35,029 nt of DNA, taken from the IMG/VR virus record IMGVR_UViG_2737471845_000031, positions 1-35,029 of that record. One strand, given 5' to 3'. The first letter of the stretch is position 1. The number at the start of each line of letters is the position of its first letter. A model generated the notes under the pieces. That model was not told where the DNA came from and made no database searches. It worked only from the letters and a program-made list of their open reading frames with translations. The stretch is from a virus. Lineage: Duplodnaviria; Heunggongvirae; Uroviricota; Caudoviricetes. This document shows, one piece after another, positions 33,101-35,029 of this stretch. A program made the translations under genes and the position numbers.

Positions 33101-33305
33101 ATCTGTTGTATGTGCCCTGTTCTGGTATTGTTTTGTCGGTTGGTGTACTGCTGAACTGCACCGCCGTTCAGGGTTTTATTCACGTTACAGTGGTGCCGGC
33201 TACTGGATTAGCTGGTCGGTGATGTTCCTGTGCTGGCCTGTGGCGCTTCCTTTATATGTCGATTATATCGGTGGCGCAGGTAAAAGGAGCAACGATGATG
33301 ACTAA
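33090..33305 (+). CDS. small membrane protein
   Basis: ~71 aa from ATG 33090; two hydrophobic segments. Confidence 0.35.
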   Translation: MTAESVVCALFWYCFVGWCTAELHRRSGFYSRYSGAGYWISWSVMFLCWPVALPLYVDYIGGAGKRSNDDD

Positions 33306-33747
33306 ACAACGTCTTATCCAGCTCATTCATATTGCCCGTAATGAACTGGGTATGGATGAAGACACCTACCGCCAGATGTTACAGGGGCTGACCGGTAAAG
33401 CCTCAACCAAAGGAATGGATACCACACAACTAAACTGCGTGCTGGAATCCATGAAAAGGAAAGGCTTTCGCGTTAAGCCTGCCGGAAAAGCCAGCTCCGG
33501 TTTACCGCTGGATAACCATCCGCAGTCCAGGAAAATCCGTGCGCTATGGCTTGAAATGGCTGCTGCCGGCATTGTTCGTGACCGTTCAGAAAATGCATTA
33601 GCGCGGTGGATCAAGCGGGAAACGGGCATCAGCGCCCTGCGCTGGCTCAATACTGAACAGGCAAGCAGTGTTATTGAGAAACTGAAGAAGTGGCAGCACA
33701 GAGCTGCGGGAGTAAAACATGAGCGACCTGAATCAGTTTCGAAGTAA
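33295..33747 (+). CDS. gemA: GemA-like regulatory protein (Mu gp16 family)
   Basis: ~150 aa from ATG 33295 (AAGGAG RBS); N-terminus KQRLIQLIHIARNELGMDEDTYRQML typical of GemA/gp16 proteins; immediately upstream of mor. Confidence 0.7.
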   Translation: MMTKQRLIQLIHIARNELGMDEDTYRQMLQGLTGKASTKGMDTTQLNCVLESMKRKGFRVKPAGKASSGLPLDNHPQSRKIRALWLEMAAAGIVRDRSENALARWIKRETGISALRWLNTEQASSVIEKLKKWQHRAAGVKHERPESVSK

Positions 33748-34117
33748 AGGGCCGGAACTCCTGGTGGAGCTGGCACAGCATACCTCTGAGACCGTTCGCG
33801 AGATTATTGATATTGAGCCCGCAATTGCCGACCAGATTGGTCAGGCCGTCGCGAACCGAATGATGCAGGTCTGGGGCGGGCAAAACGTTTATTTCCCGAT
33901 GGGCATGGTATGGAAGGTCAGTCAGCGCGACCGGGAAATCTTCAGGGAGTTTAACGGACGCAACCACCACGAACTGGCCCGCAAGTTTGGTGTTTCGCTT
34001 CAGTGGGTCTACAGCGTGGTTAAGCGGGTCAGAAAAGAAGAACTGGATCGGATGCAGGGCAGGTTGTTTGATGAAGATCTGCCAGAGGAGACGAAAGACG
34101 TTAACAAATCCAGATAA
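33719..34117 (+). CDS. mor: Mor/C-family transcriptional activator
   Basis: 132-aa ORF with the Mor/C C-terminal HTH region FREFNGRNHHELARKFGVSLQWVYSVVKR; last gene of the early operon; the only Mor/C homolog in the window. Confidence 0.8.
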   Translation: MSDLNQFRSKGPELLVELAQHTSETVREIIDIEPAIADQIGQAVANRMMQVWGGQNVYFPMGMVWKVSQRDREIFREFNGRNHHELARKFGVSLQWVYSVVKRVRKEELDRMQGRLFDEDLPEETKDVNKSR

Positions 34118-34160
34118 TTCCTGCTTGTTAAAGTCCTTTCAAAAATCTCCTTATTGTATA

Positions 34161-34193
34161 AAAGCACGGTAGACCCCTTACCGTGCTTTTTTT
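34161..34193 (+). terminator. rho-independent terminator of the early operon
   Basis: 11-bp perfect stem AAAGCACGGTA / TACCGTGCTTT with 7-nt loop, followed by a T-run, 44 nt after the mor stop. Confidence 0.75.
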
Positions 34194-34231
34194 ATGCTCT
34201 CTCTTTAGTATTCAGGATGCAGGGAGAAAAT

Positions 34232-34864
34232 ATGTTTGACGTTTCGTTGTTAAATCTGCCATGGGCAACACTGGTGACCCTGACCAGTGGCTATATTGGG
34301 TATTTTATTGCGAATGTGGGACTGAAGGATCACCACAAGCCCATTGAGGTGACTTTTTCTTCGCTGATTTTTGGCCTGACAGCAATGATGGCTTACCAGG
34401 CTGTTATGTGGGCAGGTCTGAATGCCTGGCTGGCAACACCACCAGCACTTCTGTGTGCCGTTACATGCGGTGCGTGGTGGCGCAGGTACGGTCGCAAATG
34501 GATGTACAGATTACTGTGGAATAATGATATTTCATGGTCTGACGATACCAGCTCAGCATGGCAGGCAATGTTTGATCAAACAGGCTTCAGCGTTACCGAG
34601 GTCAGAGTGATTCTTCGCGATGGTTCCGGTATGATGTCACGGCTGCCAGGGAACTTTGAAGAGTGGCCTAACGGTCCGTTTACCCTGGGGAATAAAGGCG
34701 ATATGGTTCTTTACGTCACGCACAGCAGCCCTTCAGGCAGTAACGAATGGGAAGAGTATAAAGGCGTGGTTGATAAGTACTGGGGAGCTCTGGCAACCTA
34801 TATTCCAGCAGATCAGATTGCCAGAGTGGAGATCAGGCGCGTTCGTGCAACGAACGATGAATGA
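34232..34864 (+). CDS. hypothetical membrane protein with soluble C-terminal domain
   Basis: ~210 aa from ATG 34232 (GGGAGA RBS); the ORF-track start 34154 overlaps the terminator. Three predicted N-terminal TM segments, then a hydrophilic domain. Phage or host origin unclear. Confidence 0.5.
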   Translation: MFDVSLLNLPWATLVTLTSGYIGYFIANVGLKDHHKPIEVTFSSLIFGLTAMMAYQAVMWAGLNAWLATPPALLCAVTCGAWWRRYGRKWMYRLLWNNDISWSDDTSSAWQAMFDQTGFSVTEVRVILRDGSGMMSRLPGNFEEWPNGPFTLGNKGDMVLYVTHSSPSGSNEWEEYKGVVDKYWGALATYIPADQIARVEIRRVRATNDE

Positions 34865-35029
34865 TGTTTATTTTTTCCCTGGGGCAGGGGCTGCCGGCAT
34901 AGTGGTTTTATTGGCAGAGGAAGACGATTCTCCTTTTCTACCGGAATCGCGCTCGAACGTCACGATGTGCTTGCTTTTGGGCTTTTCTGAGTAATCCAGG
35001 CTATCATGCTTATTGTTTTGAGTAGTCAT

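Follow-up and report, generated by a model that had tools for sequence, protein, structure and literature searches.

The right-hand end of a 35,029-nucleotide stretch of viral DNA (IMG/VR record IMGVR_UViG_2737471845_000031; hereafter, the window) encodes two 'hypothetical proteins', a 210-residue inner-membrane protein (34232..34864, + strand) and a hydrophilic, disordered protein of 53 residues (34868..35029, - strand). Analysis of these genes revealed that they are one conserved convergent unit, mobile among unrelated temperate phages and genomic islands of the Alpha- and Gammaproteobacteria. Both genes are part of an accessory cassette that is carried by the phage and is not host DNA, which we regard as practically certain, and it is very likely that they constitute a conserved two-gene unit. 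We would describe the cassette as an uncharacterised moron of DUF6338-like type, unusual in its conserved convergent layout. The explanation that best accounts for the whole is that of an optional pair of phage cargo genes working as a membrane-acting anti-phage module of the lysogen, a proposal that is made tentatively and stands a little below an even chance of being right.

The phage origin of the cassette is established by the comparison of its insertion sites. The last 910 bases of the window were found in 130 of 5426 complete Escherichia coli genomes, mostly with 100% identity and in all cases in the chromosome, at scattered coordinates and with no more than three copies per genome. A probe spanning the junction with mor, the final gene of the early operon of this prophage (33719..34117, + strand; Pfam Mor PF08765, E 1e-43; RefSeq copies are annotated as Mor family protein), was contiguous in 114 genomes. 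When the insertion sites of strains ABU 83972 and FORC_031 were aligned, the identity ran for 196 bp past the window and ended after ...CATTTATCTCATGTCTGATCA, and a third insertion site ends identically; the shared sequence reaches ...GTCTGATCA at at least three insertion sites. This comparison locates the phage end at window-equivalent position 35225 (the numbering being continued beyond the last base of the window). The opposite phage end in ABU 83972 reads ...CATTTATCGCGCGGCGCATCA, and the element in this strain has 5'-TG...CA-3' termini, ATTTATC repeats at both ends, and a flanking 6-bp target duplication, ACAAAT, of rstB, all of which are the marks of transposition. The cassette is flanked by a truncated rstB in ABU 83972 and by a CP4-type island in FORC_031, and other copies adjoin tar/cheW, hofO, bacterial microcompartment (BMC) shell genes or the gene of a TonB-dependent receptor; its position is between the core genes and the terminal transposase-binding repeats, inside the phage ends. 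Host DNA is excluded, since the chromosomal sites are unrelated, the genes are always beside mor, and host sequence appears only after the shared terminal segment of 196 bp.

An original prediction, based only on the letters of the window, had suggested a possible prophage boundary close to these genes, which could be either a terminal moron or flanking host DNA. A boundary is indeed near, although its true position is 196 bp beyond the last window base. The moron alternative was borne out, given that the segment is missing from most otherwise near-identical prophages and lies inside the phage ends, and the flanking-DNA alternative had to be abandoned because the genes move with the prophage to unrelated chromosomal sites; the presence of the gene at one fixed locus of prophage-free strains, named beforehand as the observation that would overturn a phage origin, was not seen. 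As for superinfection exclusion, the example of a function that accompanied the moron alternative, the present comparisons speak neither for it nor against it. The idea that the genes are flanking host DNA or chance open reading frames (ORFs) has a single point in its favour, their position at the window edge; against it, they travel with the phage, inside its ends, and both belong to conserved families and are under purifying selection, which leaves this idea a negligible probability.

The cassette is an accessory insertion in about one fifth of this prophage family. The segment that is either present or absent, of approx. 1.15 kb, comprises 34078..35029 and continues to window-equivalent 35225; it leaves mor outside, apart from its last ~13 codons. 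The gemA-mor module (gemA, 33256-33747, + strand, Pfam GemA E 1e-40) was detected in 640 E. coli genomes, and the cassette is contiguous with it in only 114-118 of them. The similarity to most of these relatives ends at ~34074-34077, within the last codons of mor, and the same breakpoint holds in comparison with cargo-less relatives such as EC958 and with phage PhiKM. Most relatives of the prophage end ~150 bp past mor: in EC958 the phage end (...TCATTTATCTCAAGTCTAATCA) is found at this distance with nothing in between, and FDAARGOS_1258 and AR_0013 likewise have no gene after mor. Strain CFSAN051542 and phage KP12 carry an unrelated ORF of 109 residues in this slot. Base composition was rejected as a sign of foreign origin, given that the GC content across the cassette (0.44-0.52) is not distinctive when compared with that of the rest of the early region (0.44-0.61).

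The small ORF of the - strand was drawn correctly in the original prediction, from the window edge to 34868, but its status as a conserved partner gene and not an artefact of the edge went unrecognised. Its ATG corresponds to the last three bases of the window and its stop codon begins three bases past the end of the membrane gene. The product (RefSeq WP_001571575.1, phrog_15726) contains the motif D-Y-S-E-K-P-K and a C-terminal tail with the sequence PAAPAPGKK. In the comparison of the window with E. coli alleles, the ratio of nonsynonymous to synonymous substitution rates (dN/dS) was 0.16-0.30 in frame versus 0.6-6 in the shifted frames. The conserved convergent position, the motifs and the in-frame purifying selection indicate that this ORF is a real gene and a conserved partner. 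Structure prediction gave no secondary structure (predicted template-modelling score, pTM, of 0.16). A whole-database search with the small protein retrieved close relatives only, and it was position and motif, rather than score, that identified the distant partner ORFs.

With these means, a convergent ORF of ~40-66 codons was observed beside most of the intact copies of the large gene that were examined. The small partners are hydrophilic and share an aromatic-x-x-P-K/T motif; in enterics it reads DYSEKPK, and in alphaproteobacteria there are two or three copies of N-[YFH]-x-P-x-T. Most of the small proteins end in a proline-rich, lysine-terminated tail (PAAPAPGKK, PPAPLGKK, PPPSPKKK or PPPPKK), from which a few enteric alleles differ. 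In 13 of 15 loci the two stop codons are separated by -4 to +7 nt. The pair is located right after mor in BcepMu-like prophages of Citrobacter, Serratia, Salmonella diarizonae and Symbiopectobacterium, between the connector and the head-closure genes of an HK97-like phage, and at the end of a rhizobial prophage, after a Dam methylase gene and next to serS. It is also present in islands of Bradyrhizobium, Afipia and Devosia, and the family of the large gene extends to a locus of Allosphingosinicella.

Several peculiar members of the family were recorded in this survey. The Allosphingosinicella protein, from a metagenome-assembled genome (L031 8756-10371), is a distant member with a C-terminal extension of 30 residues rich in Ala, Pro and Ser; the convergent ORF is short (33 residues) and proline-rich, and the gene is two genes away from a Peptidase_M78 and DUF4411 pair, a pairing frequently found on mobile or defence islands. 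Among deposited phage genomes, only that of Synechococcus phage Ssp-JY41 encodes a homologue of the large protein (29% identity; L037 2983-3726, positions 1-744 of the record); there the gene is at the very start of a linear record. In the decaying symbionts Pantoea persica (L015), Arsenophonus (L016) and Phlomobacter (L024) the small ORF has either been deleted or can no longer be recognised. As for the large gene, four residues (YGRK) are missing from it in the first two symbionts, and in the third it is a pseudogene.

The membrane gene has its ATG at 34232 and its stop codon at 34862-34864, and is preceded by the ribosome-binding site (RBS) GGGAGA (34222..34227, + strand). Its product corresponds to the RefSeq 'hypothetical protein' WP_000460689.1 and to phrog_12870 (E 6e-134); the matches to PHROG families 12870 and 15726, of the large and small proteins respectively, are end to end. 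A word-indexed search detected 72 homologues of the large protein, and an exhaustive search 521 clusters at 50% identity; almost all of them have 196-250 residues and a single architecture. When the window allele was paired with either of two E. coli alleles, dN/dS was 0.09-0.10; the pair formed by those two near-identical alleles gave 0.28.

The original prediction of a protein of about 210 residues with three N-terminal transmembrane segments agrees with this ORF, in which hydrophobic peaks centred near residues 22, 50 and 70 coincide with the helices of an AlphaFold model (mean predicted local distance difference test score of 85.6, from a 36-sequence alignment). The predicted membrane domain (34262..34522) comprises helices at residues 11-27, 37-60 and 65-97, and it is followed by a beta domain (residues 101-205; 34532..34846) with a predicted Sm-like fold and the motifs ISWSD..SAW, PNGP..G and GD..YVTH. 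These motifs, helix 1 and the KDHHK loop that follows it are the most conserved parts of the family, and residues H35, D104, D157, H164 and R202 show no or almost no variation between Alpha- and Gammaproteobacteria. There are five K/R versus one D/E after helix 3 and no K/R before helix 1; from the positive-inside rule, this distribution suggests that the N-terminus is out and the C-terminus is in. Foldseek ranked LSm proteins first for the large protein, with non-significant E values. Judging from the model, an N-out/C-in topology with a cytoplasmic Sm-like beta-barrel is probable.

The transcription signals around the pair differ for the two genes. The early operon ends in an intrinsic terminator (34160..34196, + strand) formed by a 13-bp stem (34160-34190) with a 5-nt loop and a T-run to 34196. 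The ATG of the membrane gene is located 42 nt past the last paired base and 36 nt past the T-run, and the distance of 39 nt given in the original prediction falls in this range. A hairpin and T-run are present at the same position, ~35-45 nt before the membrane gene, in eight of the nine Enterobacterales loci compared, and the remaining one (L008) has an extra ORF of 95 residues in the place of the terminator. The reverse strand of this terminator reads as the stem followed by TTTTAT, and it may stop transcripts of the small gene as well. A scan of the + strand before the membrane gene found no promoter at the level of nine of 12 consensus positions. A weak candidate, TAGACC-17-TATGCT (34170..34198), matches eight of 12 and is nested in the terminator; this nested layout is present in loci L012/L013 and L027 and not in L011, L014 and L017. 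For the small gene, a sigma-70-type promoter-like site, TTGAAA-N18-TAGAAT, was found 37-44 nt upstream of the ORF in eight of eight Enterobacterales loci; it is exact in five of these, and the other three show one change in a hexamer or in the spacer. The site is followed by the RBS AAGGA; in the prophage of the window it is just outside the window, at window-equivalent 35102-35073. Because the stop codons of both genes touch and leave no room for a terminator, a transcript of the small gene would run antisense through the membrane gene.

Other possible regulatory elements were also considered. The dyad bound by Mor in phage Mu is centred at -43.5 of a promoter without a -35 element (PMC4287176). 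The dyad of the terminator (centre 34175) and the TAGTAT sequence at 34206-34211 fit this geometry in the window; nevertheless, a Mor-dependent promoter was rejected, as loci L027 and L012 have a different spacing and no similar dyad occurs elsewhere in the window. An inverted repeat of 16-17 nt (CATTGGAATCATCCTTT / AAGGATGATTTCAATG; L003 6908-6926 and 6968-6986, window-equivalent 35027-35045 and 35087-35105) joins the RBS and start codon of the small ORF with the -35 region of its own promoter. A hairpin sequestering the RBS of the small ORF was evaluated (fold of -24.8 kcal/mol, z -2.3) and discarded as a control of this promoter: the -35 element is inside the upstream arm, so the transcripts from the promoter do not include this arm and the hairpin would affect only transcripts that read in from outside. 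Alternatively, the repeat could be a protein-binding site. Between the phage end and the promoter of the small gene there is a terminator-like hairpin on the - strand (GGTTCTGGTGAACAGAACT with a T-rich tail; L003 7039..7021, window-equivalent ~35158..35140), and this putative terminator would be oriented against transcription entering from host DNA. A search for known RNA families in the terminal 1.2 kb gave none near any gathering score.

Comparison with catalogued families linked the large protein only distantly to a family of membrane proteins. In PHROGs, the matches were the two families of unknown function already mentioned and no others. Matches to DUF6338 (PF19865), weak and collinear, were obtained with 20 of 36 members of the family of the large protein, from residues 43-136 of the protein to positions 54-144 of the profile; the scores of these homologues were 14-28.5 bits, one of the 10 tabulated being above the gathering score of 26.5 bits, and the window protein itself gave no match at E<=1. 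From these alignments the large protein is considered a distant relative of DUF6338, and not a member of it by the Pfam threshold. The DUF6338 proteins are uncharacterised membrane proteins of a similar length (~205 residues), and the match extends from helix 2/3 to the beginning of the C-terminal beta domain. The literature search retrieved no mention of either RefSeq accession or of PF19865, and DUF6338 was named once, in passing. No similarity was detected to known exclusion proteins (T4 Imm and Sp, P22 SieA, HK97 gp15, and the Cor/Llp types) by means of Pfam, PHROGs, NCBIfam and PADLOC.

Several well-studied systems share some features with the cassette. RexA and RexB of phage lambda form a prophage pair for abortive infection or exclusion, with a polytopic inner-membrane protein and a soluble partner, and are dispensable for phage growth. 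The cassette resembles them as an accessory prophage pair of a membrane protein and a soluble partner; however, there is no similarity of sequence or profile, and the rex genes are co-directional and located in the immunity region, whereas those of the cassette are convergent, with touching stop codons and a disordered partner of ~50 residues. The Bacillus subtilis pairs txpA/RatA and bsrG/SR4 are prophage type I toxin-antitoxin systems with convergent, 3'-overlapping transcripts; the cassette is likewise convergent, located on prophages, with a forced 3' overlap of the transcripts and one membrane-targeted product, but its membrane protein has 210 residues with a folded cytoplasmic domain and its opposing transcript encodes a conserved protein. 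Given this size and fold, and an opposing ORF that is coding (dN/dS 0.16-0.30), assignment to the type I systems was rejected; assignment to a type II operon was also rejected, given that the genes converge and that the small protein has neither a DNA-binding domain nor a predicted structure.

With regard to channels and holins, the core of MscS is N-out, with three helices and a cytoplasmic Sm-like beta domain, an order also predicted for the large protein; this likeness is one of architecture only and is not evidence of descent. A test for homology with MscS was negative. In the comparison with E. coli MscS, hhalign aligned a single stretch, 'WPNGPFTLGN' (34661-34705, residues 144-158) with 'IPNGKIIAGN' (residues 160-174), a non-significant alignment (probability 0.1%) that nevertheless falls in the structurally equivalent beta domain. 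Class I holins also have three helices and an N-out/C-in topology, and Foldseek gave weak matches in BFVD to LydA-type and other three-helix holins (E 0.02-0.9). These matches are non-significant; moreover, the lysis cassette is a long way from the gene, a putative holin is already encoded by the phage, and holins do not have a folded C-terminal domain of 110 residues. The candidate assignments as a Cap15-like effector of the cyclic-oligonucleotide-based anti-phage signalling system (CBASS), as a holin, or as a known defence system found no support, and the combination of a match to Cap15 models or structures with a linked cyclase was not found. A comparable layout is that of the transposable Pseudomonas phage Fc02, in which the accessory genes olg1 and gene 10 are on opposite strands and overlap, and exclusion was shown experimentally (PMC9936078). 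Fc02 and the prophage of the window share a Mu-type lifestyle, small accessory genes near a genome end, opposite strands and overlapping transcription; the differences are that the Fc02 genes are at the other genome end (the repressor/ner side), overlap fully and encode unrelated proteins.

From these data, the following mechanism is proposed. The large protein would be an inner-membrane protein whose N-terminus faces outward and whose Sm-like domain is in the cytoplasm; the Sm-like domains would probably form a ring, as they generally do, and a pore-like or membrane-perturbing assembly of the helices could then result. Transcription of the small gene would start near the phage end, from a conserved sigma-70 promoter belonging to this gene, and proceed inward without depending on the phage regulators; the antisense transcript may extend to the mor terminator. 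With an antisense transcript forced in this way, the small gene would hold back the membrane protein through RNA and probably also through its own product, whose proline-rich tail would bind the beta-barrel. Control of the membrane protein by the antisense transcript or by the partner is possible, though we would not count on it. The anti-phage proposal is suggested by a pattern of genes that are found in unrelated temperate phages, are dispensable, and combine a membrane-targeted product with an independently promoted partner, which is typical of modules that protect the lysogen or of toxin-antidote modules; phage Fc02, with its overlapping exclusion genes, provides a precedent. Therefore, our best guess for the biological role, offered with reserve, is that of a membrane-acting anti-phage module, of exclusion or abortive infection, that benefits the lysogen. 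A more specific version, in which a ring pore of Sm-like domains is shut by an antisense-coupled proline-rich peptide and opens when this control is lost during infection, to abort the infection or to exclude the entry of DNA, is speculative and rather unlikely; if true, this reading would give the first function to the DUF6338-like superfamily.

A number of observations weigh against the anti-phage proposal. The membrane gene is behind a terminator and has no convincing promoter, so it may be silent in lysogens. Almost nothing of the large protein is predicted to be outside the cytoplasm, and known exclusion proteins usually expose a periplasmic domain. PADLOC-DB v2 gave no family for either protein at E<=1, Pfam and NCBIfam gave nothing for the large protein of the window, and the PDB holds no sequence-related solved structure. 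The slot after mor is usually empty, or contains an ORF of the Gp27 family, and is not a hotspot of known defence genes, which leaves an argument from defence hotspots unsupported. Finally, the small ORF of the E. coli allele L030 is truncated before the proline tail while the membrane gene is intact, and P. persica has lost the small ORF; these two alleles indicate that the tail of the small protein is not an obligatory antidote.

Among the other explanations, an accessory function in the lytic cycle ranks next to the anti-phage module, and we consider it unlikely though worth keeping in mind. According to it, the membrane gene would be turned on only with the early operon, through partial read-through of the mor terminator, and would act early, e.g., by blocking a secondary infection of the committed cell or by adjusting membrane physiology, while the antisense transcript silences it in the lysogen. 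The membrane gene is co-oriented with the early operon, begins 36-42 nt past its terminator with a strong RBS and without a promoter of its own at the nine-of-12 level; this layout of terminator and RBS recurs in eight of nine Enterobacterales loci, and the transcript of the small gene, which has an independent promoter-like site, would have to overlap the membrane gene. Nevertheless, in the HK97-like phage the pair is within the late structural operon, where the membrane gene has its own promoter-like site; no Mu-type early genes were found beside the pair of the Bradyrhizobium island, and neither this island nor the Allosphingosinicella locus shows an evident phage operon nearby. These settings argue that the function is not tied to a Mu-type early programme, and most members of the prophage family dispense with the cassette.

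The two remaining explanations rank third and fourth. An addiction module that stabilises the prophage or island, with a pore-type membrane toxin and the convergent transcript and/or the small protein as the antidote, would account for the tight convergent pair with its obligatory transcript overlap, for the combination of a membrane protein with a small, fast-evolving and constitutively promoted partner, for the presence of the pair on many kinds of mobile elements, and for the intact cassette of the defective FORC_031 prophage, which has no transposase genes. However, type I toxins are short peptides (<60 residues) and not two-domain proteins of 210 residues, the small ORF is clearly protein-coding and under purifying selection, the membrane gene can be intact where the small ORF is truncated or absent, and transposable prophages, which do not excise, have little need of such a module; in consequence, addiction seems improbable. 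Slightly less probable still is a function in lysogenic conversion unrelated to phage conflict, i.e., a minimal MscS-like channel or sensor, or a membrane-tethered ligand binder, that alters the stress tolerance of the host. The predicted parallel with the MscS core described above would suit this function, and so would the near-invariance of helix 1 and of several polar residues across Alpha- and Gammaproteobacteria.

About 2% of the complete E. coli genomes carry the cassette, among them those of the therapeutic bacteriuria strain ABU 83972 and of ST131 isolates. Mobile two-gene units of this kind have repeatedly proved to be defence, exclusion or toxin-antidote systems. The pair, of ~0.9 kb, has no match among the catalogued systems of this kind and is small enough for direct testing. 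As the two-gene design is conserved in distant phages, the pair may reasonably be put forward as a possible new conflict system of small size, while as a prophage moron it is ordinary; if it turned out to be neutral or purely regulatory, it would be an ordinary moron and nothing else. For the annotation of the record, these results imply that the right border set by the prophage caller is 196 bp short and that the last two genes belong to the phage.

With respect to the rest of the window, the prophage is a BcepMu-like transposable phage, and the nearest deposited phages are classed in Bcepmuvirus. The - strand carries the tail, head and lysis genes from position 1 to ~23000, and the early operon is on the + strand. 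Both borders of the window coincide with gene borders, i.e., the stop codon of a tail-fibre ORF of the - strand at position 1 and the ATG of the small ORF at 35029, and the prophage exceeds the window on both sides. On the right side the excess is the 196 bp already described (L003 6911-7106); on the left side, in ABU 83972 (L036 1136-4770), a longer tail-fibre gene, a tail-fibre assembly gene, an inverted fragment of a tail-protein gene and a recombinase (invertase-like) gene precede the phage end.

Two further details were noticed in other copies of the cassette. Some alleles have an extra ORF between mor and the terminator (L027 2663-2905, its equivalents in L030 and L038/L039, and L008 7690-7977); in the E. 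coli alleles it encodes a cysteine-rich product of 80 residues and in Serratia marcescens an unrelated one of 95 residues, neither with a Pfam match on record. The prophage copy of FORC_031 (L004 3669-4981) lacks the transposase gene, the ExeA/B-like gene, gam and their neighbours; in this copy DUF3102 almost directly precedes the genes located before gemA, and gemA, mor and the cassette are kept at 100% identity.

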